Positions 6,946 through 45,106 of a stretch of 64,000 bases of DNA are shown here, piece after piece. Made by a program: the position numbers and the translations under genes. A model generated the notes under the pieces. That model ran no database searches and was not told where the DNA came from. It saw nothing but the letters and a program-made list of their open reading frames with translations. Every line of letters begins with the position of its first letter. Position 1 is the stretch's first letter. Source of the DNA: Pseudomonas phage EL; the sequence record AJ697969.1. One strand, given 5' to 3'.

Positions 6946-7021
6946 TCCGTGATAGCTCAGTAGGTAGAGCAACTGTTTCGTAAACAGTAGGTCCCGGGTT
7001 CGAACCCTGGTCACGGAACCA
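6946..7021 (+). tRNA. tRNA-Thr (anticodon CGU) with encoded CCA
   Basis: Cloverleaf read by hand. Acceptor TCCGTGA/TCACGGA. D arm GCTC-AGTAGGTA-GAGC. Anticodon stem ACTGT/ACAGT with loop TTCGTAA. T arm CCGGG-TTCGAAC-CCTGG. Discriminator A followed by CCA. Confidence 0.85.
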
Positions 7022-7654: not shown

Positions 7655-8191
7655 ATGTTTACTGAAAAACAAATGGAAGAACTTACCAGTGCTCGTAGAG
7701 AGGATGTGTGGAGTTATGACATATTTGAAATGACACTATTCCTGATGGAAACAGAGTGTGATGGTGGCGTCCCCTTCTTGAAACATATCATCATGTACAG
7801 TTTCAAGAAGATGCTCTCTGGAGAATCACTAGATCGTTATGCGATTGGACTGATGAATAAAATGATCTACGATACTGAAGGCCGTGATGCCAAGGGAATC
7901 GTAGAAAGGGTTGTGTTACAACGATTGACTGAAAGCGATATCCTGGAAGCCCACGCCTCCCTCATGATTTACATCACCAAAGCTAAGGAATTCCTGGAAG
8001 ACCTCAGTCAACGTTTCCCCGATCACTTCCAGAGTGTCAGCCGAGAAGAAACACCCAAAAAGTTCTGCTTTGCGAATAAACCGGCTCCGGAAGGGACGGT
8101 CAGGGAACTCGCCGCTAAATACGGTAAGTCGATCAGTGAAATCCGTAAACTCAAAGCAGCCGGTCGTCTTCATGAACTAGCACAGGGGTAA
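7655..8191 (+). CDS. Hypothetical protein
   Basis: 178-aa ORF. Confidence 0.6.
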   Translation: MFTEKQMEELTSARREDVWSYDIFEMTLFLMETECDGGVPFLKHIIMYSFKKMLSGESLDRYAIGLMNKMIYDTEGRDAKGIVERVVLQRLTESDILEAHASLMIYITKAKEFLEDLSQRFPDHFQSVSREETPKKFCFANKPAPEGTVRELAAKYGKSISEIRKLKAAGRLHELAQG

Positions 8192-8197
8192 TTGGTC

Positions 8198-8338
8198 ATG
8201 TTTTGGAAATTCACGTGTTACAACAAGGACACTTGGGAAGCCCCCCACCAAATGACCTTGATAGAAGCGGTCGAACTCTTTATGCGGGAAACCCAATACA
8301 GCCAGTGGGATATTCACTTCGTTGAGAATCTCCACTAA
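8198..8338 (+). CDS. Small hypothetical protein (46 aa)
   Basis: ATG 6 nt after the previous stop, preceded by aggggtaa. Below the 60-aa cutoff of the ORF track. Confidence 0.3.
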   Translation: MFWKFTCYNKDTWEAPHQMTLIEAVELFMRETQYSQWDIHFVENLH

Positions 8339-8377
8339 ACCGTTGTTAAACAATCTGTTAAACAGAAGGATAGCATT

Positions 8378-9136
8378 ATGAAACCCTTTCGAGTACCTGT
8401 TGGACGTCTCAGTAAAGATCGACTGGAATGGCTCATCCGTCATCGTAAAGAAAAGAAACGTGAATGTCCCTTTGGTGTTGCTCACTTCCCCAAAGGAACG
8501 ATCGCGGTATTCGAGTCCCCAACCCAGCGTTTTCTGAAAGAGGACGAACGTGAGTTTCCTGGTCAGCGGTACGCAACGTTCGAAGCGGAAGTGGAGGGTG
8601 TAGTCCCCAACGGACCGAACAGTTGGGTGGCTGTTCTAAAGGACCGTACGGCGATTAACATCGACTGGGCGCGCAAGATCATTAAACGGGGGGATGGTCC
8701 TCTCCGCGCCGCGGAGAATGACGTGGAGGACAGTCTGTGGAAAACCAGAGCCACCCACCCCCTGGATCCTGACACCCACCTTCCCATCAACAAACACCCC
8801 AACCACTACTACATCGACTCGATCTATCATGTTATCTACGGAAAATTGGAAGAGGTTAATAAAAATAACTTCGCCACTCATCTGATCGATGTGGATAAGT
8901 TGATTTCGCTGATGTGCGGTGATATCATTCGTCAGGCAACCTCCTGTGGTGATGGTGTTTACTGCCATTATCTCATCAGTAAGAAGAAGTTCCGCAAGAT
9001 CTTCAACCGTTGTCTGCCGCGTGCGCGCACCAGCCGGCGTAAAGAAGCTGAACGTCAGGCCAGGATCGAAGCATTCGAATACAACAGGTCGTTTGATGAC
9101 CGTTATGAAGACGATTACGACGACCCGGAGGTGTGA
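8378..9136 (+). CDS. Hypothetical basic protein
   Basis: 252-aa ORF. Lys/Arg-rich C-terminal region. Confidence 0.55.
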   Translation: MKPFRVPVGRLSKDRLEWLIRHRKEKKRECPFGVAHFPKGTIAVFESPTQRFLKEDEREFPGQRYATFEAEVEGVVPNGPNSWVAVLKDRTAINIDWARKIIKRGDGPLRAAENDVEDSLWKTRATHPLDPDTHLPINKHPNHYYIDSIYHVIYGKLEEVNKNNFATHLIDVDKLISLMCGDIIRQATSCGDGVYCHYLISKKKFRKIFNRCLPRARTSRRKEAERQARIEAFEYNRSFDDRYEDDYDDPEV

Positions 9137-37835: not shown

Positions 37836-39806
37836 ATGGGTAAACACTCACCTGTTGAACGGATTAAATACCTCCATGAACAACTGACGTATCACGCCCA
37901 TCTCTATTTCGTCGAGAACCGGAACGAGATCTCTGATGAAGCGTATGATGTGTTGGAGCAAGAACTCAATGAGTTGTACGACCGATACCCTGAAATAGCG
38001 GCTAAGTTCGATTTCTATAATCGTCCCGTTCCTATTCATGAACCCTCCGGGGAAACCATTCAACCCGTACGGTTCGAGGAACCCATGCTCAGCTTGAAGA
38101 AAGCCTTGAGTGTGGAGGAGGCGGATACATTCCTGTTAAAGTTCCCGGATGGTACAAACTTCTTTTACGAAGAGAAACTGGATGGGTTGGCCCTGGAGTT
38201 GGTGTATGAACAGGGACAACTGGTCAGTATGAGTACCCGGGGGTCTGGATTAGTCGGGGAAGATGTGACGCATTCCATAGTTCTCTTCGATGAAGCTACA
38301 CTTCCTCGTACCTTAAGGACACTCCCTGACCGCCATAAACCCCAGGGGGATCGATTGGTTATTCGGGGTGAAGGGTACATCAGTCTGGAACGCTTCGATT
38401 CTCTTAATGAAACAGGGGGTAAACGGTCCAATCCCCGTAATGCCGTGAGTGGGTGGGTGCGGTCCCTCCCTCAGAACCAACGGGAGGATATCCGAGGAAC
38501 GCTGTACTTCGCGGCGTATTACGCCAGTGATCGATTGGGGACGAAAGCCTATTCCGAATTGAGGCAGGTTCTCTTAGGCCTAGGGTTTGGTGTTCCTGAA
38601 TCCAGGGATTGGATTGCGGTCTCAGAGAACCGGAGGGGGAACATTCGTCCGGTGGATGGGATTGTGATTAAAGTCGACAAGTTCAAGGAACAAGACGCCA
38701 GTGGAAATGGGAGTAAATTCCCTCACTGGGCGATTGCTTACAAGTTCCCTGCGGAAGAAGCGTTGGCCCAGGTTGAGGGCTGTATCTGGAATACCTCTCG
38801 GTTTGGTCGGGTAGTACCGGTGGTCCAGTATACCCCTGTAACGATCCAAGGGGTTATCTGTCAGTCTGCGTCGTTAGATAACTACGGTTCGTTTATGGAC
38901 TTAGGGTTATCAATCGGGGATCGGATTGTTATTACCCGGAACAACGATGTGATCCCTCGGTTGAACCGGGTGGAGGAGTGTGGGGAAGGAGACCTCCTAG
39001 AAGCGCCTACAAGCTGCCCTAGCTGCGATTCTCTCCTAGAGGTAGTGGTGGGTAGGGACAGTTCCGAACTCGTCTGTAATAACGTCGCAGAGTGCCCTGC
39101 GCAGATCGTTATGCGGTGCGTAACGACGTTCGATAAGTTTGGACTGGATGTAGACGGTTTAGGACCCGTTAAGGTCAGTGAATTGGTTGAGAAAGGATGG
39201 GTTAAGCAACCAGCTGATATACTTACCCTTCCGGAAGGCATTAAGGATCAATGCCTCACCCCGACGACTCGAAGAGGTTTGGAGCGTGTCCTTCAGGAAC
39301 CCGTTCCTTTACATCGCTTCTTAAAGGCGTTGGGTATCCCGGATATTGGGATCACTTTGGCTAAACGCCTAGCCAACGCCATCCCTGAAGGGAAGATCGA
39401 AGAATCCCTTACCAATCCTAAGTTCCTACAAAGTGTACGAGGGGTTTCAGTGGGGATTGCTTACCGGGTCGTGAACGCGTTCGACTCCCCGGTCTTTAAG
39501 GACAACTTCCACGCCCTAAAAGGTTTGTTAACTCTCCAGTACACCGGAACGCAGGACGACTGCATTAAAGTCTGTATTACCGGCAACATTGGACCTTCCC
39601 GAGGAGAACTCTGTAACCTGTTCGCTAAGGAAGGGATTGAACTCAGTGATCGGCTTACCCAGGACTGTGCCTTCGTCATTGTGGGTGATCGTCCTGGTAA
39701 ATCGAAACTGTTAATTGCAACCGAATCGGGTATACCTATGCTAATTGCAAAGGATTATTCGAGCATTGGCTCCCTCATTCAGTTCATTAAAGGACACCGA
39801 GAATGA
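37836..39806 (+). CDS. ligA: NAD-dependent DNA ligase
   Basis: Domain Ia motif AYD.LE.EL..L....PE. PMLSL. KxDG adenylation motif EEKLDGLA. NPRNAVSG. WAIAYKFPAEE. Zn finger CPSC...C..V.ECPAQ. C-terminal BRCT-like region. Confidence 0.93.
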   Translation: MGKHSPVERIKYLHEQLTYHAHLYFVENRNEISDEAYDVLEQELNELYDRYPEIAAKFDFYNRPVPIHEPSGETIQPVRFEEPMLSLKKALSVEEADTFLLKFPDGTNFFYEEKLDGLALELVYEQGQLVSMSTRGSGLVGEDVTHSIVLFDEATLPRTLRTLPDRHKPQGDRLVIRGEGYISLERFDSLNETGGKRSNPRNAVSGWVRSLPQNQREDIRGTLYFAAYYASDRLGTKAYSELRQVLLGLGFGVPESRDWIAVSENRRGNIRPVDGIVIKVDKFKEQDASGNGSKFPHWAIAYKFPAEEALAQVEGCIWNTSRFGRVVPVVQYTPVTIQGVICQSASLDNYGSFMDLGLSIGDRIVITRNNDVIPRLNRVEECGEGDLLEAPTSCPSCDSLLEVVVGRDSSELVCNNVAECPAQIVMRCVTTFDKFGLDVDGLGPVKVSELVEKGWVKQPADILTLPEGIKDQCLTPTTRRGLERVLQEPVPLHRFLKALGIPDIGITLAKRLANAIPEGKIEESLTNPKFLQSVRGVSVGIAYRVVNAFDSPVFKDNFHALKGLLTLQYTGTQDDCIKVCITGNIGPSRGELCNLFAKEGIELSDRLTQDCAFVIVGDRPGKSKLLIATESGIPMLIAKDYSSIGSLIQFIKGHRE

Positions 39807-41110
39807 CTGTTAAAACTGACACCAACGACCAACAACACACTACCACCGACCCGGTAGTAGCAATGAAACTCAAGAAGGCCGAGAAGGCTCTGAAACACTC
39901 CAAGGAACTGGGTAAGAAGATGAAACACGACAAGGAACAGTTGGATAAGAAATCCATTACCCAACCCACTGAGAATAAAGAGTACCGTTCCGCCCCTGAG
40001 CCTTCTAAGCCCAAGGTGGTGGTTGACGGTAAGGAACTGGTGGCTCTCGATACCAAGCCGTACGGCGAATGGATCCGTTCCAAAGAAGGACACGATATTT
40101 TTGGGAATACATTCTGGTCAGTAGGTGTAACCGCGGAAATCGCCCTCTTCTCTCATTTCAAGACAACTTTTTGCGGAGTTGAACTCGATCTCTTGGTCGA
40201 CTCCTATTCTGAAGTTACGCTGGAAACCCCTACTGACGTTCCTTTCCTTAACGTCAGTAAGCGTAAGGGGAGTGCTGTGGTAGTCAACTCGGTGGTTAAT
40301 CGTTGTGAGTTTGAAGGGGAGAATTGTCTTCTGAATGTCGAGATTAACGACTGTGTGGTTAACAAGAGCAAGGTCGTTCGTACACGATCGACCGAATTGC
40401 GACCAATCGACGAACTGATCGACTTCCCAAAAAGAGCGGATGTATTTAGACGAGGGGTCGATCAACGCGCCCGGTACAACGACTGCCGTTTCATCGAATC
40501 CGAGATTAAAGATTCTCCCATCAATGGCAAGGGCTTAGTGAAAGAGTCGTATGTGGATCGTACCCACATTACCGCTGGGAAGTTTGCCATCGTTAAATCG
40601 CATCTTACCACCACCACCCTCACCGCATCCATGCTGTCTCTCTCGAAAGCTTACCTTCATGGTTGTTACTTGAGCGTTTCTGAAACGCTGATCCTTCGCA
40701 ACTTCACCCTCCGGAATAAGACGCTTTACATGAGGTCACTCTACGCGCCTAATAAACTGGGTCTTACGGAGATCGAACTTCCGTTCCATCCTCAAAATCT
40801 TATTCTGCACCGCACCTCAAAAACACAGTATGTAATCTCCATCCGCTCGGGTGGTTCGTCCGGCCTTGAACTGGGGAGCGACGTAACTTGGGAAGAACTC
40901 AGTGAAAAACTGGGTGAACTCTTGATAAAAACCCCGATGGTCAATAACGAGATCTCTGAAGACGGACTCCTCTTCAAAAGCATCTTGAATTATGTCCTGA
41001 AGTCGGTGATTTCTCGGATGAAGATCATCAAGTTGATGGACGATGTGATGGCTGTTAACCGTAGTATCACATCAGATTTCGAGGATCCTGAGTCCGTCCC
41101 GTATTGTTAG
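39803..41110 (+). CDS. Hypothetical protein (435 aa) with Lys-rich N-terminus
   Basis: Long ORF. KLKKAEKALKHSKELGKKMKHDKEQLDKK. Possible beta-helical repeats. Confidence 0.6.
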   Translation: MTVKTDTNDQQHTTTDPVVAMKLKKAEKALKHSKELGKKMKHDKEQLDKKSITQPTENKEYRSAPEPSKPKVVVDGKELVALDTKPYGEWIRSKEGHDIFGNTFWSVGVTAEIALFSHFKTTFCGVELDLLVDSYSEVTLETPTDVPFLNVSKRKGSAVVVNSVVNRCEFEGENCLLNVEINDCVVNKSKVVRTRSTELRPIDELIDFPKRADVFRRGVDQRARYNDCRFIESEIKDSPINGKGLVKESYVDRTHITAGKFAIVKSHLTTTTLTASMLSLSKAYLHGCYLSVSETLILRNFTLRNKTLYMRSLYAPNKLGLTEIELPFHPQNLILHRTSKTQYVISIRSGGSSGLELGSDVTWEELSEKLGELLIKTPMVNNEISEDGLLFKSILNYVLKSVISRMKIIKLMDDVMAVNRSITSDFEDPESVPYC

Positions 41111-41119
41111 TACACAACA

Positions 41120-41159
41120 CCTTACTCCCCAGGTAATCCTGGGGAGTAAGGGTTTAATT
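41120..41159 (+). terminator. Terminator (ccttactccccagg/cctggggagtaagg)
   Basis: 14-bp perfect stem then gtttaatt. Confidence 0.65.
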
Positions 41160-41190: not shown

Positions 41191-41682
41191 ATGTCCAAAA
41201 CAAAGAGGAATGACCGATATGTCATTTATACCGATGGGAGCGCGTTAGGGAATCCAGGTCCGGGCGGTTACGGTGTTTACGCTAAATACAAAGGGGAAGA
41301 ATTCTCCCTGAGTAAAGGGTATTACAAAACCACTAACAACCGTCAAGAACTCATGAGTGTGATTGCAGCACTGGAAGAGTTTGGTCCTAATATCAAAGTG
41401 GACATCTTCACTGACTCCCAATACGTCATTAAGTGTGCTACTAAATGGATGAGAGGATGGATACGGAACAACTGGATGGGGTATAACTCTGGGCAACCGG
41501 TTAAGAACCGCGATCTGTTGGAAGTCCTCAATGAACTCTTGAAGAAGAATAAGGTAAAGTTCCATTGGGTTAAAGGTCACTCTGGGGATGAAGGGAATGA
41601 AAAGGCAGACCAATTAGCCAAGGATGCTGCCAATAATCCGGAAGCCCACGATATGGAATACATGAAAGTCTTAGGGTTCTAA
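41191..41682 (+). CDS. rnhA: Ribonuclease HI
   Basis: IYTDGSALGNPGPGGYG, TTNNRQELM, TDSQYV, WVKGHSGDEGNEKADQLA. Near-canonical RNase HI catalytic motifs. Confidence 0.93.
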   Translation: MSKTKRNDRYVIYTDGSALGNPGPGGYGVYAKYKGEEFSLSKGYYKTTNNRQELMSVIAALEEFGPNIKVDIFTDSQYVIKCATKWMRGWIRNNWMGYNSGQPVKNRDLLEVLNELLKKNKVKFHWVKGHSGDEGNEKADQLAKDAANNPEAHDMEYMKVLGF

Positions 41683-41707
41683 TCAATCAACCGTGGAGAT
41701 TAACACT

Positions 41708-42946
41708 ATGAAAAGCTTTATTGATGTATCAGTAGTAGAAGATGGGGGTAAACAGTTCCTCTTCGGTATTACTGCGAATCAAAAGACAGGACGACCCGAA
41801 GTCGTAGGATATACCGATCCTGATTATTTCAGAGAGGGTGCTGACCGTGTGTTTGAACAGCTTATCCGGGAAGAACAACGAAAGGAAGCGGATATTAAAC
41901 TCCAGTTAGCCTTTATTAAGGTGGTCAAGGAACATCCCGGTAAACAACTGCAACTCACGCTTTGCTACAGCGCAAATGGACCGTCAGCTGGAGAATTTTA
42001 TTGGGTGGAGGATCGGTGTTATACGGCTGACGGAGTGTCCTTCCTATCGAATGCTCCGGTGTGTATCTATCATAAGAACTGTCTGGATGGTACTGCGGCA
42101 GCTTGGGCGGTAAGACGTGCACTCCCCTTGGTTGAATTGGTGGCTATGAGCTATCATGATGATCCGTACGAACTCTTTGGCCCGGGGTTGGAGTATCTAC
42201 AAGGGAGAATGGTCTATTGTGTTGATTTCAGTTTTAAGAAAGCAGTTGTAGAAGCGATTGCTAATTTACCGGATACAGGCTTGTTGATCTTGGATCATCA
42301 CGAGAGTGCTCAACGGGAACTGGGTGAACTCGTCGTTGGTTATTCCGGGAAATCAACGCTGGGTGATCGGGTTGAGATTATCATCGATATGACACGTTCA
42401 GGCGCTAAGTTGACGTACGACTACTTCCACCCTCAACAACCGACGCCTCCGGGTATTCTGGCGGTACAAGATCGGGATCTGTGGAAATGGGGGTACGAAG
42501 GCAGTAAGGAATGGACCGCAGCTGCCTTTGGGTATCCCCTCACCGTTGAGAGTTTCGATAAACTGATTCATCGGGATTACCAAGACGTGGTAGAAGAAGG
42601 TCGTACCGTCCTTCGTAAGCAGGAATTGGATGTCGAGAAACTGCTCCCGAGTGCGCGGCCTTACACGTTGGAGGGGTACAACTGCTTGATTGTTAATGCC
42701 AGTTATTTCCACGCCAGTGATGTAGGGGATAAACTGAAGGGTCGAGACGGTATTGACTTTGTAGTCACTTACATGGATGGTAAGGATAGCCGGATCTTCT
42801 CTCTACGGGGTAAGGATAAAGTGAACCTAGCGGAAGTGGCTGAACGTTTTGGAGGAGGCGGCCACCCTAACGCAGCAGGGTTCACCTTGAGCTTCAACGA
42901 TCCTCGTTTCTCCCAGTCACACCTGTTACTATATTCCGGTACTTAA
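41708..42946 (+). CDS. DHH-DHHA1 family phosphoesterase (NrnA/RecJ-like)
   Basis: DHH motif LILDHHES. DHHA1 motif FGGGGHPNAAGF. Confidence 0.75.
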   Translation: MKSFIDVSVVEDGGKQFLFGITANQKTGRPEVVGYTDPDYFREGADRVFEQLIREEQRKEADIKLQLAFIKVVKEHPGKQLQLTLCYSANGPSAGEFYWVEDRCYTADGVSFLSNAPVCIYHKNCLDGTAAAWAVRRALPLVELVAMSYHDDPYELFGPGLEYLQGRMVYCVDFSFKKAVVEAIANLPDTGLLILDHHESAQRELGELVVGYSGKSTLGDRVEIIIDMTRSGAKLTYDYFHPQQPTPPGILAVQDRDLWKWGYEGSKEWTAAAFGYPLTVESFDKLIHRDYQDVVEEGRTVLRKQELDVEKLLPSARPYTLEGYNCLIVNASYFHASDVGDKLKGRDGIDFVVTYMDGKDSRIFSLRGKDKVNLAEVAERFGGGGHPNAAGFTLSFNDPRFSQSHLLLYSGT

Positions 42947-43114
42947 ATGGACACTCACACACTGTTCTTAATCATTGACCTGGTAGGTAAATCCGTTTTT
43001 ATTGGTGACTTAGTGACTCGCGTGGACGACCATCGACTTATGAAGTCTATCCGATATTTGGAGAATCGGAAGGTGATTAAAACAGTTACGGTTACCCAAT
43101 GTTTACGTAACTAA
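42947..43114 (+). CDS. Small hypothetical protein (55 aa)
   Basis: ATG overlaps the DHH stop (taaatg). Below the ORF-track cutoff. Confidence 0.3.
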   Translation: MDTHTLFLIIDLVGKSVFIGDLVTRVDDHRLMKSIRYLENRKVIKTVTVTQCLRN

Positions 43115-43134
43115 CAGGTATTCCATTTGATGGG

Positions 43135-43183
43135 GGGTGGTTAGTATACAGGCTAACCACCCTGTTCTCTCTATTTTTTTTTT
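43135..43183 (+). terminator. Rho-independent terminator (gggtggttag/ctaaccaccc) + T10
   Basis: 10-bp stem followed by a run of ten T. Confidence 0.7.
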
Positions 43184-43196
43184 CGGGATAAGTGGA

Positions 43197-43622
43197 ATGA
43201 ATAATTACGGGTATGTGGATGTGTCCTTGGTAGGACCTGAAGTAGAGGAAATCTTTGGCTTGCTCTTGGAGTGTGGTATTGCACCGGCTGCGGAGTATAA
43301 CCTGCATTGTACCCTGATGTACGATGAACAGGCAGAAGAACCGCTGGTGAAACTGAATCCTGATGCGAAATTCACCGCCTACGTGACAGGGATTGATGTA
43401 CTGGGAGATGGATTGGTGTTTAACCTTACCAGCAAAGACCTCGCTGATGAACACCGCAGGTTGAAAGACGGTGGATATACCCATTCCTTTGATGCCTTCT
43501 TACCGCACATGTCTGTCACCTATGACTTCGATGAATACGACATGTTGAAAGTGAAGCAAGCTTTCGCAACCTGGGGTGGTCGACAACTCACCTTCAGTAA
43601 AGAATCGTTCGGAACCAAATAA
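43197..43622 (+). CDS. 2H phosphoesterase superfamily protein (LigT/Acb1-like)
   Basis: Two H-h-T/S-h motifs (LHCTLMY and PHMSVTY) spaced about 70 aa apart in a 141-aa protein. Confidence 0.65.
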   Translation: MNNYGYVDVSLVGPEVEEIFGLLLECGIAPAAEYNLHCTLMYDEQAEEPLVKLNPDAKFTAYVTGIDVLGDGLVFNLTSKDLADEHRRLKDGGYTHSFDAFLPHMSVTYDFDEYDMLKVKQAFATWGGRQLTFSKESFGTK

Positions 43623-43631
43623 GACCCGATA

Positions 43632-43667
43632 CTACCCCTACCCTTGACCGGGTAGGGGTAGGTTTAA
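43632..43667 (+). terminator. Terminator (ctacccctaccc/gggtaggggtag)
   Basis: 12-bp stem then gtttaa. Confidence 0.5.
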
Positions 43668-43784: not shown

Positions 43785-44999
43785 ATGAGCGTGACTACTG
43801 ACTTCAATGCCGCCCTGGCGAATGTCTTGAGTGACATCGGTGAAAAGACAGACCGTGAGGAGATCCTGTCGATCATCTACCACCACCTCTTCGACGAGAC
43901 GCGTTTCAATAAATCAAAGCGTCCGTCTGCGCTGAAGAAGATCAACGAGGCGACTCGTTCCCGGTTTACGATGAACGACGTTCGTCACGCCGGTAAGAAA
44001 CCGGAGAAGTTGATCGTAACGGATAAACTGTCCGGTCATGTTGACATTCCCGTCCGTGTGATGGGTGAAGTGAATGAACAGGCCTCGCAGGCAGAGACTG
44101 TTCCGGCAACCCCCACTGAAACTGATGCAATGACCCACCTGGAGAACACCATGAAAGAAGAAAACCAACCGCTCGCCCAACAACTCCTGGAACGATCCCA
44201 AGGTGCCCGCGCCGCCTATGAAGAACAGGCGGGGGCTTCCAGCTGGTCCGACAGCAATGACAGCGACGAGGTCGTCGAGGTACTGGGGGTGACCTTCAAG
44301 GCCGATAACATCCTGTCCTACACCATCGACGCCTGGCTGATCAACGGCGGTCTCCCGACTCACCTGAAGACCGAACTGGAAGAGCTCGTCAAGAGTCAAG
44401 ACCACTCGTCCCCGGCGGGTGCGCTCCGTGCCTTCCTGGACGACCACCCCGAACTCAGCCAGGAGTTCATCAATCAGTACAGCAAGGCGGTAAAAGACAT
44501 CAACGCCACCGGCGTGGAAGCTGAAAAGGCGCGCCGTGATGCGGCTAAAGCCCAACGGCAAGCGCCGGGTACCTTCAAGGAACGTGTCGTCTACACCCTC
44601 CGGGGCGGTCGTGAAGAAGGCTTCGGTTCCGGCGCGGTGGCGGCTGCTGCGGCGATCATCGGCGGTGGTGTCGAAATGGCATCACGTGGGAATGTGAGCA
44701 TCGGTTCGGTTGTGGGTACGGGGCTGGGTGCGGCGGCCGGTTACTTCGCGGCTGAGAAAGCAGAAGGCCTCATGAAGAGCGAACCGGGTCGTTACATCGT
44801 GAGTGGTTCGATCGGTCTGATCCTGGGTGGGGCGGGTTCCAACCTCGGACGTACCACTCAAGGCCTTCTGGGCTTCGGTCCTCAGCAGCCCCAAGGCGAG
44901 CCCGTAGCGACGGTTTCCGTTCGGGAGCAGGTCACGGCACAACCGGAACCGGTTCCTCAATCCCAGGGCATTCTGGCCACGGTAGCTGCCCTGTTCTAA
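43785..44999 (+). CDS. Hypothetical protein (404 aa) with C-terminal glycine-zipper membrane region. GC3-rich.
   Basis: Strong third-position GC bias. The C-terminus GSGAVAAAAAIIGGG...GLILGGAG resembles the 41-397 protein. Confidence 0.65.
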   Translation: MSVTTDFNAALANVLSDIGEKTDREEILSIIYHHLFDETRFNKSKRPSALKKINEATRSRFTMNDVRHAGKKPEKLIVTDKLSGHVDIPVRVMGEVNEQASQAETVPATPTETDAMTHLENTMKEENQPLAQQLLERSQGARAAYEEQAGASSWSDSNDSDEVVEVLGVTFKADNILSYTIDAWLINGGLPTHLKTELEELVKSQDHSSPAGALRAFLDDHPELSQEFINQYSKAVKDINATGVEAEKARRDAAKAQRQAPGTFKERVVYTLRGGREEGFGSGAVAAAAAIIGGGVEMASRGNVSIGSVVGTGLGAAAGYFAAEKAEGLMKSEPGRYIVSGSIGLILGGAGSNLGRTTQGLLGFGPQQPQGEPVATVSVREQVTAQPEPVPQSQGILATVAALF

Positions 45000-45057
45000 G
45001 CAATACGGAATAACAGCGAACATGATTAAACTCAGTTAATCGACTGACGGTGCTCGA

Positions 45058-45106
45058 CTACGAGGGGTTATTCCCTCGTAGTTGGGTATTCGTTCTCTAT
45101 TTTTTA
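45058..45106 (+). terminator. Terminator (ctacgaggg/ccctcgtag) + T-run
   Basis: 9-bp perfect stem then tctctatttttt. Confidence 0.6.

Follow-up and report, generated by a model that had tools for sequence, protein, structure and literature searches.

Pseudomonas phage EL (sequence record AJ697969.1) was found to encode a candidate anti-defense enzyme of the Acb1 family, the 141-amino-acid (aa) protein gp126, downstream of the genes for ribonuclease HI (RNase HI, gp124) and a DHH/DHHA1 phosphoesterase (gp125). The locus was analyzed within a stretch of 64,000 nucleotides of the EL genome, referred to here as the window. Its best explanation, which is considered probable, is that gp126 is an Acb1-family phosphodiesterase directed against the cyclic oligonucleotide-based antiphage signaling system (CBASS), and that RNase HI and gp125 belong to a separate block which continues the replication and repair genes.

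The four open reading frames (ORFs) of the cluster had been described in an earlier, sequence-only reading of this region. Their coordinates were reproduced by a six-frame ORF listing, all on the plus strand (Table 1), and all four motifs quoted in that reading (LILDHHES, GGGGH, LHCTLMY and PHMSVTY) were found in the ORF translations. In an exact-sequence look-up, gp125 and gp126 were identical, residue for residue, to the EL proteins YP_418158 and YP_418159, respectively; the number gp126 follows a note in the GAP32 record. The EL genome has a size of ~211 kb, and a 2.6-kb stretch of the locus is 96-98% identical to eight Elvirus phages of Pseudomonas aeruginosa of ~210 kb (megablast). Whole-genome annotation was taken from HHBS47_1, an Elvirus relative which is 97% identical over this region. 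A nuclear shell protein, the tubulin PhuZ and split multisubunit RNA polymerases are annotated in HHBS47_1, which indicates a nucleus-forming jumbo phage. All codon changes given below were counted between the gene in the window and two other Elvirus genomes (L001 and L002), with one figure per genome.

Assignment of gp126 to the Acb1 Family

The sequence of gp126 matched the Pfam family PF23474 (Acb1) with 43.5 bits (cut-off 27, E = 3.5e-11). It was also assigned to phrog_755 (E = 1.1e-27), which is matched by Acb1 of phage T4 at 5e-68, and the UniRef/UniProt name of the identical EL protein (Q2Z0V5) is already 'Anti-CBASS protein Acb1'. The residues of the catalytic tetrad were identified as H37 and T39 (LHCTLMY) and H104 and S106 (PHMSVTY). 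They are invariant in 12 gp126 homologues with 50-69% identity, and at the level of sequence the two H-x-T/S motifs are beyond chance.

A profile of the 12 homologues was compared with the PDB. It matched the BCSR5 enzyme 9q2g and, at E = 3e-4, the Acb1 structure 7t26; the two HxT motifs are aligned in register. The hhalign comparison of gp126 with T4 Acb1, the sequence of which was taken from the T4 record, resulted in a probability of 87%, with H37, T39, F98, H104 and S106 of gp126 paired to H44, T46, F107, H113 and T115 of T4 Acb1. The AlphaFold model of gp126 has a predicted local distance difference test (pLDDT) value of 88 and places each H-x-T/S motif on a beta strand. Using Foldseek with this model, the five best PDB matches were all of the Acb1 type (9q2y, 9q2g, 7t26, 7t27; E = 3e-7 to 8e-5). 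The best matches fall in structural group 3 of the viral 2H phosphodiesterases, a group described as having broad specificity (10.1101/2025.08.21.671373).

The sequence-only reading had derived a 2H phosphoesterase from the two histidine motifs, and this claim is borne out by Pfam, the PHROG assignment, Foldseek and the invariant tetrad. It had left the choice between an Acb1-type and a LigT-like enzyme undecided and had pointed to comparisons with T4 Acb1 and LigT. In these comparisons the Acb1 part held, as the Pfam score lies well above its cut-off and the best Foldseek matches are Acb1-type structures, whereas the LigT part did not. The Pfam family PF13563 (2_5_RNA_ligase2) reached 20.8 bits, which is below its cut-off of 27 (E = 4e-4), and PF02834 was not matched. 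In the Foldseek search, LigT-type structures appeared near E = 1e-2 compared to 3e-7 for the Acb1 type, with E. coli LigT at rank 21 (E = 1.2e-2). Judged from these profile and structure comparisons, gp126 belongs to the Acb1 (anti-CBASS) type of 2H phosphoesterases, not to the LigT type. The misleading 'RNA ligase' product names in many records are due to the legacy label of phrog_755; T4 Acb1 (57B, NC_000866 RefSeq) bears the same label.

In acb1, 0 and 1 nonsynonymous changes were counted versus 7 and 10 synonymous ones. This points to strong purifying selection and a constrained functional gene. The codon GTG 43137 was ruled out as start of acb1, as all homologues begin at ATG 43197 and the GTG is located within a conserved hairpin. 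A literature search for EL or Elvirus together with Acb1 found no paper and no experiment on gp126, and the protein is absent from those listed in the study of viral 2H phosphodiesterases (10.1101/2025.08.21.671373).

Several Acb1 homologues are annotated as 'structural protein' (CBB_118, RisingSun gp120, XbC2 and pEa_SNUABM_47). The homologues of CBB, RisingSun and GAP32 are located at 2501-2947, 7992-8426 and 301-747 of the respective sequences analyzed. In view of these labels, Acb1 might be a virion component that enters the cell upon infection.

Comparison of gp126 with Characterized Acb1 Enzymes

The Acb1 proteins of T4 (57B, NP_049750) and of Erwinia phage FBB1 (7T26/7T27; Hobbs et al., 2022, PMC9117128) have PF23474 and phrog_755 in common with gp126. 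Further likenesses are the compact 2H fold of ~140-150 residues, the HxT/S...HxT/S tetrad, which is in register with that of gp126, and the origin from a lytic phage of a Gram-negative host. The second motif differs, being H-M-S in gp126 and H-I-T in T4 and FBB1 Acb1. In T4 Acb1, the aromatic residues Y12, W74, F107 and W147 stack on nucleobases (Hobbs et al., 2022, PMC9117128). Two of these four appear to be kept in gp126, with Y6 corresponding to Y12 and F98 to F107 in an alignment at ~19% identity. The last predicted strand of gp126 is E130-138 of 141 and the protein ends three residues later. The alignment reaches approximately residue 143 of T4 Acb1, and gp126 stops ~10 residues before T4 Acb1 does.

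The best match of gp126 was 2H PDE-9 of Burkholderia phage BCSR5 (9Q2G/9Q2Y; 10.1101/2025.08.21.671373), with a Foldseek E of 3e-7, a template modeling (TM) score of 0.70 and a sequence identity of 18%. This enzyme is named Acb1 in the PDB and belongs to structural group 3, as does T4 Acb1. With a length of 165 aa, it carries an N-terminal lid of 15 residues, whereas in gp126 the first strand is preceded by ~4 residues. According to its model, gp126 appears to be without a lid at either end. The RisingSun and GAP32 homologues are equally short at the N- and C-terminus; the pTD1 homologue has no C-terminal lid, but carries an N-terminal extension of ~10 residues. For PDE-9, removal of the lid was tolerated for 3'3'-cyclic GMP-AMP (3'3'-cGAMP) and the substrate choice was described to be set mainly by the core (10.1101/2025.08.21.671373). 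Since lid removal is tolerated and relatives are similarly short, the loss of the lid was read as a trait of the subgroup and not as exclusion from Acb1.

The DHH/DHHA1 Phosphoesterase gp125

The assignment of the neighboring enzyme to the DHH/DHHA1 phosphoesterases, likewise made in the sequence-only reading, was confirmed by phrog_4771 ('DHH phosphoesterase', E = 3.7e-99), by Pfam DHHA1 (32.2 bits, cut-off 25.9) and by invariant motifs. The Pfam DHH N-terminal domain was matched with 16 bits, below its cut-off of 28.1. The ORF opens at GTG 41693, and relatives annotate ATG 41708, resulting in 412 aa. The protein contains LLILDHHES and FGGGGHPNAAG, and the residues D178, DHH 201-203, DRD 260-262 (D260/D262) and GGGGH 387-391 are invariant in 22 homologues. 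The gene is mislabeled 'methyltransferase' in the Elvirus records OP599913, PV400809 and PV400810.

More than 550 homologues of gp125 were found, nearly all of which have a length of 270-330 aa and align to residues 106-417 only. The catalytic core (~42053-42946, ~290 residues) was modeled by AlphaFold with a pLDDT above 90. The N-terminal extension (41708-42052; residues 1-105 to 1-120) is present in Elvirus only, and its model, with a few strands and one long helix, is of low confidence. The idea of a fused upstream gene of relatives was rejected, as BLASTP and tblastn found no similarity to the extension beyond Elvirus.

The best Foldseek matches of gp125 were NrnA, GdpP, Rv2837c/CdnP and TM1595 (E = 1e-11 to 1e-13), and DhhP and PggH were also among the matches, at 13-20% identity. 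A two-lobe architecture of DHH and DHHA1 joined by a helix is common to gp125 and NrnA (B. subtilis; S. aureus Pde2), Rv2837c/CdnP, TM1595, the GdpP catalytic domain and COG2404 'NrnB'; the name given to gp125 homologues by the Joint Genome Institute (JGI) is 'oligoribonuclease NrnB'. In common with the NrnA-type enzymes, gp125 has the motif II and motif IV Asp residues, the DHH triad that forms motif III, and GGGGH, whereas the Cys in motif I, the sub-threshold Pfam DHH match and the Elvirus-specific extension set gp125 apart. A RecJ single-strand DNA exonuclease was rejected as identity of gp125, since Pfam shows DHH and DHHA1 only and no oligonucleotide/oligosaccharide-binding (OB) fold or other DNA-binding domain. 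Archaeal RecJ2 structures ranked 14th-16th in the PDB search, below those of the NrnA type, and viral proteins named RecJ were found at ranks 28 and 33 of the BFVD search with the gp125 model.

In the BFVD, the viral models closest to the gp125 core derive from other jumbo phages and from Marseillevirus, Lausannevirus, Klosneuvirus, Pithovirus and Hokovirus. The DHH proteins of the giant eukaryotic viruses are 22-30% identical to gp125 at a root mean square deviation (rmsd) of ~3-4 Å. These matches suggest a DHH clade common to phages and nucleocytoplasmic large DNA viruses.

Experimental data on viral DHH enzymes are given in a recent preprint, in which gp125 was included as Ph_DHH_7B in a cell-based cGAMP-STING reporter screen (Supplementary Table 1, 10.64898/2026.07.21.739742). 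In the text of the preprint, mimivirus R106 and Ph-DHH-3B are the only DHH enzymes described as active and gp125 is not named (10.64898/2026.07.21.739742); the absence of gp125 from the active enzymes is a weak negative. In vitro, numerous messengers were degraded by the DHH enzyme of mimivirus (Profeta et al., 2026, 10.64898/2026.07.21.739742), and groups 4 and 5 of the viral DHH-DHHA enzymes have an ordered helix between the lobes, as gp125 does.

Gene Neighborhood of DHH and acb1

In EL, the gene order is SbcC, three small genes, the NAD-dependent DNA ligase (NAD-ligase), a 435-aa gene, RNase HI and DHH. Genes of replication and repair were also found near DHH in other phages. In Moabite, the NAD-ligase is followed by one hypothetical gene and DHH. 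The DHH gene of phiCbK has RNase H 1.1 kb downstream and a deoxynucleoside monophosphate (dNMP) phosphatase upstream, and in PaBG the order is clamp loader, SbcC, hypothetical gene, DHH, endonuclease and SbcD. SbcC is located 2.3 kb from DHH in AgentSmith, and LucasX has a thymidylate kinase two genes upstream of DHH. A ligase, RNase H or SbcCD was present within 6 kb of DHH in five of the nine lineages sampled. This neighborhood is suggestive but not proof, because such genes cluster anyway.

RNase HI itself matched Pfam RNase_H with E = 1.2e-45 and the NCBIfam ribonuclease HI equivalog with 169.8 bits (cut-off 160). Nonsynonymous codon changes in its gene numbered 0 and 1, synonymous ones 7 and 8. 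It is an RNA-primer-removing replication enzyme, and RNase HI and the NAD-ligase are both ordinary replication enzymes. For gp125, the preferred reading, held with slightly less than even confidence, is a short-oligonucleotide or nanoRNA phosphodiesterase of nucleic-acid turnover, based on the NrnA-like fold and the gene neighborhood only. An independent signal-degrading role of gp125 is rather unlikely, but is given appreciable weight.

To describe the association of DHH with acb1, all ORFs of 80 viral contigs with gp125 relatives were scanned, which together with four further loci resulted in 84 loci. The Acb1 searches used a narrow profile, a broad profile including T4 Acb1, and a 2H motif pattern. 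An Acb1 gene near DHH was found at 8 of the 84 loci, all of them in jumbo phages of the EL lineage. At the other 76 viral DHH loci, mostly of ~40-kb phages, neither the two profiles nor the motif pattern detected an Acb1 or 2H gene. Likewise, no Acb1 was found within 5-12 kb of DHH in PaBG, phiCbK, H20, Moabite, LucasX, PCH45 and AgentSmith, nor in Ea277G.

Members of the EL lineage retain RNase H, DHH and Acb1 in this order; in two of them (L003 and L004), each interval holds three to four unrelated small genes. In Erwinia phage RisingSun the ligase is followed by the 435-aa homologue, RNase HI, several small genes and Acb1 (44% identity). No DHH gene is present between RNase HI and Acb1 in this phage, and a close RisingSun orthologue of DHH was not among the 60 best phage matches. 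In jumbo phages of the CBB/GAP32 type, the Acb1 homologue is located beside a Sir2-like gene, and CBB has NAPRTase three genes upstream; the annotation of the 5.4 kb of CBB that were inspected contains no DHH gene. The setting of Acb1 in GAP32 and CBB is thus like that of a counter-defense locus. Since DHH loci without Acb1 and Acb1 loci without DHH both occur, the two genes are separable in both directions. The synteny within one lineage of generally conserved gene order does not constitute independent evidence of a link.

Alternative Explanations

The sequence-only reading had considered an RNA (tRNA) repair pathway that counters host anticodon nucleases. In such a pathway, gp126 as a LigT-like 2',3'-cyclic phosphodiesterase would heal cleaved tRNA ends, the DHH enzyme would trim them and a ligase would seal them. 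Membership of gp126 in the 2H superfamily is in line with this, as are the names 'RNA ligase' or '2'-5' RNA ligase family' in many records and the weak match to 2_5_RNA_ligase2, and a possible role of jumbo-phage 2H enzymes in the removal of cyclic ends for RNA repair has been proposed (Iyer et al., 2021, PMC7824862). Against it stand the scores and structures given above, which favor Acb1 over LigT, and the origin of the 'RNA ligase' label in the legacy name carried by T4 Acb1 as well. Furthermore, the annotation of the complete HHBS47_1 genome contains neither an RNA ligase (Rnl1, Rnl2, RtcB) nor a polynucleotide kinase, and its only 'RNA ligase' label belongs to the 2H protein itself. The ligase encoded near the cluster was found by Pfam to have all LigA domains, and is thus an NAD-dependent DNA ligase of full length. 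The tRNA gene taken as nearby in that reading is tRNA-Thr (anticodon CGT, 6946-7021), the only tRNA gene in the window, and lies 34 kb from the cluster. As to the two MNT-fold proteins named as further context, no Pfam match at E <= 0.1 was obtained for the three small ORFs that separate SbcC from the ligase. With neither RNA ligase nor kinase annotated in this close relative and the tRNA so distant, an RNA repair pathway is very improbable.

A two-enzyme module for the degradation of signals would have Acb1 linearize the messenger and gp125 finish the linear 3'-phosphates or degrade cyclic di-AMP (c-di-AMP) and the cyclic oligoadenylates cA3-cA6. DHH and Acb1 are neighbors in EL, five metagenomic relatives (50-69% Acb1 identity) have RNase H, DHH and Acb1 in the same order, with the three genes nearly adjacent in two of them (L005 and L008), and gp125 evolves fast, as conflict genes often do. 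NrnA-type DHH enzymes cleave dinucleotides and 3'-phosphoadenosine 5'-phosphate (pAp). The product of Acb1 is linear, GpAp (Hobbs et al., 2022, PMC9117128), and DHH and 2H proteins of jumbo phages have been predicted to be counter-nucleotide defenses (Iyer et al., 2021, PMC7824862). In the preprint mentioned above, the mimivirus DHH and one phage DHH blocked 3'3'-cGAMP signaling (10.64898/2026.07.21.739742). The synteny is, however, confined to one lineage, with Acb1 at none of the other 76 loci and in none of seven other isolate lineages. Small unrelated genes intervene in L003 and L004, Acb1 of RisingSun is not accompanied by DHH after RNase HI, and a conserved hairpin with a T-run lies between the two genes in EL. 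In addition, gp125 was screened with cGAMP-STING and is not among the actives named in the text of the preprint. On these grounds the claim that the four genes form one module is not supported, and a module of the two enzymes is considered improbable.

The remaining function proposed for gp125 is that of a stand-alone anti-defense phosphodiesterase acting on a signal other than cGAMP (cA3-cA6 of type III CRISPR systems, c-di-AMP or pGpG), unrelated to Acb1 and to replication. GdpP (c-di-AMP) and PggH (pGpG) are among its structural matches, the breadth of messengers degraded by the mimivirus enzyme points the same way, and the DHH family is widespread in ~40-kb temperate phages amid accessory genes such as methyltransferases. 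The fast evolution of gp125 within Elvirus would fit as well. On the other hand, four further phage lineages also have DHH next to ligase, RNase H or SbcCD, and close structural relatives come from giant eukaryotic viruses, the hosts of which have neither CBASS nor type III CRISPR. Serratia phage PCH45 carries a DHH homologue and is reportedly still restricted by type III CRISPR signaling. This function is likewise regarded as improbable. A slight probability was given to the view that gp126 represents a naturally lid-less, minimal Acb1 subgroup, mostly of jumbo phages (EL, RisingSun, GAP32/CBB and pTD1 types), with a range perhaps narrower than that of T4 Acb1 and, in the EL lineage, perhaps physically linked to DHH. 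Such an enzyme might spare 2'3'-c-di-AMP and so not trip decoy-signal systems such as Panoptes, and the linked, fast-evolving gp125, with its Cys-for-Asp change in motif I and its lineage-specific N-terminal domain, might consume the linear products or cover signals missed by Acb1.

The explanation preferred here, an Acb1-family anti-CBASS enzyme next to a separate replication and repair block, also has a number of points to its disadvantage. Regarding gp126, the Pfam Acb1 match spans positions 29-122 of the 144 profile positions only, the identity to T4 Acb1 is ~19%, the position of W74 is lost by a four-residue deletion, and the C-terminal lid of T4 and FBB1 Acb1 (residues 145-152, including W147) is missing. 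Since the T-run of a terminator-like element ends 13 nt before the ATG and no promoter was identified, acb1 may depend on read-through. For gp125, motif I reads H127-x-x-C130-x-D132-G with Cys in 22 of 22 homologues (C130, ~42080-42082). The canonical motif I of DHH enzymes is D-x-D, the first Asp of which is replaced by this Cys. In the phage DHH family around gp125, the invariant Cys may result in altered metal binding or redox sensitivity. The codon changes of gp125 were 22 and 14 nonsynonymous and 28 and 33 synonymous, compared to 0-1 nonsynonymous in the flanking RNase HI and acb1 genes, and such fast protein evolution would rather be expected of accessory or conflict genes. In ~40-kb phages the DHH gene is found among methyltransferase and integrase genes and not among replication genes. 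Finally, other viral DHH enzymes degrade 3'3'-cGAMP (10.64898/2026.07.21.739742), and among the viral 2H phosphodiesterases there are two structural groups for which no cleavage of any of 18 messengers was observed (10.1101/2025.08.21.671373). The latter implies that the fold alone does not settle the substrate of gp126, which we infer from its relatives in the Acb1 family.

Neighboring Genes and Transcript Signals

The coordinates of the cluster and of the hairpins around it are given in Table 1.

Table 1. Genes and predicted RNA structures of the gp124-gp126 locus of phage EL (positions in the window).
Feature	Position	Strand	Remarks and evidence
RNase HI (EL gp124 by position)	41191-41682	+	Pfam, NCBIfam
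DHH/DHHA1 phosphoesterase (EL gp125, YP_418158)	ORF 41693-42946, start ATG 41708	+	exact match, PHROG, Pfam
ORF55, 55 aa	42947-43114	+	ORF listing; no family match
Acb1-family 2H phosphodiesterase (EL gp126, YP_418159, UniProt Q2Z0V5), 141 aa	43197-43622	+	
Hairpin, 14-bp stem	41120-41151	+	between 435-aa gene and RNase HI; -30.4 kcal/mol, z = -6.5
Intrinsic-terminator-like element	43134-43183	+	12-bp hairpin 43134-43163, T10 43174-43183; -21.8 kcal/mol, z = -4.3
Hairpin, 12-bp stem	43632-43661	+	directly 3' of acb1 stop; -27.3 kcal/mol, z = -3.7
Hairpin	45049-45090		after 404-aa gene; shuffle test

The four hairpins each fold better than all of 200 shuffled sequences. The hairpin upstream of RNase HI is likely a transcript boundary or stabilizer. 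In the terminator-like element between ORF55 and acb1, both the hairpin and the T-run (9-11 T) are kept in two other Elvirus genomes, and this conservation suggests that transcription from the DHH gene into acb1 is at least attenuated. In a scan for sigma-70-type promoters, shuffled sequence gave more matches than the real one; for a phage that uses its own RNA polymerases, such a scan is uninformative. A 'GGTTTAA' motif after two of the hairpins was discarded, since it is not enriched (7 matches versus 5 expected).

The ATG of ORF55 abuts the stop codon of the DHH gene. ORF55 was scanned against Pfam, PHROGs, NCBIfam and PADLOC without a match and was found only in Elvirus genomes. The substitution counts (1 synonymous and 1 nonsynonymous in one genome, 1 and 3 in the other) show no sign of purifying selection, and its coding status is uncertain. 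A conserved partner gene was rejected as explanation of ORF55, which is also unlike the small ORFs before acb1 in L003 and L004.

Two larger proteins flank the cluster. The start codon of the 435-aa protein (39803-41110) overlaps the stop codon of the NAD-ligase (ATGA). It has no match in Pfam, PHROGs, NCBIfam and PADLOC, and is conserved at the same position in related jumbo-phage contigs with 23-26% identity; RisingSun gp111 is found there. The 404-aa protein (43785-44999) is located just downstream of acb1 and is flanked by the hairpins 43632-43661 and 45049-45090. Its C-terminal third is Gly/Ala-rich, hydrophobic and up to 63% identical in relatives, and the only match of the protein was a weak one to phrog_29858 (function unknown).

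Proposed Mechanism and Biological Meaning

By analogy with T4 and FBB1 Acb1, gp126 would be a metal-independent enzyme. At its tetrad H37-x-T39/H104-x-S106, the ribose 2'-OH would attack a 3'-5' phosphodiester in a cyclic di- or trinucleotide that contains adenosine, and the reaction would proceed through a 2',3'-cyclic phosphate intermediate to a linear 3'-phosphate product. In this way, the CBASS messenger (3'3'-cGAMP, cA3 and similar) could be destroyed before the cell-killing effector switches on. The DNA of EL would be shielded by the phage nucleus from DNA-targeting defenses, yet the phage would be exposed to abortive-infection signaling in the cytoplasm. In P. aeruginosa, the protection conferred by CBASS III-C against a nucleus-forming phage of the phiKZ type exceeds 10^5-fold, and abortive-infection systems were described by the authors to bypass the nuclear shell (PMC10889362). 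A messenger-destroying enzyme in the cytoplasm, the presumed location of gp126, would fit the need of such a phage.

RNase HI and gp125 would extend the replication and repair block of SbcC and the NAD-dependent DNA ligase. Here, gp125 would most likely act as a Mn2+/Mg2+-dependent nanoRNase of the NrnA/NrnB type or as a short-oligonucleotide phosphodiesterase, which would clear short oligoribonucleotides, e.g. the products of RNase H, or pAp. A role as dedicated Acb1 partner is improbable for gp125.

The Acb1 identity of gp126 is already contained in UniProt and Pfam, EL was sequenced in the 2000s, and gp125 has already been cloned as a candidate cGAMP phosphodiesterase (2026 preprint). What is mildly new is limited to the absence of a lid in this subgroup of Acb1 and the Cys found in motif I of the DHH enzyme. 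Apart from the correction of annotation, the findings have little consequence. The mislabels concerned, Acb1 as 'RNA ligase' and DHH as 'methyltransferase', have spread, and the adjacency of the two genes inside one phage lineage is no evidence of a functional module. The presence of a plausible anti-CBASS enzyme in a nucleus-forming Pseudomonas jumbo phage bears on the prediction of host range and on phage therapy, because CBASS is among the few defenses shown to stop such phages.

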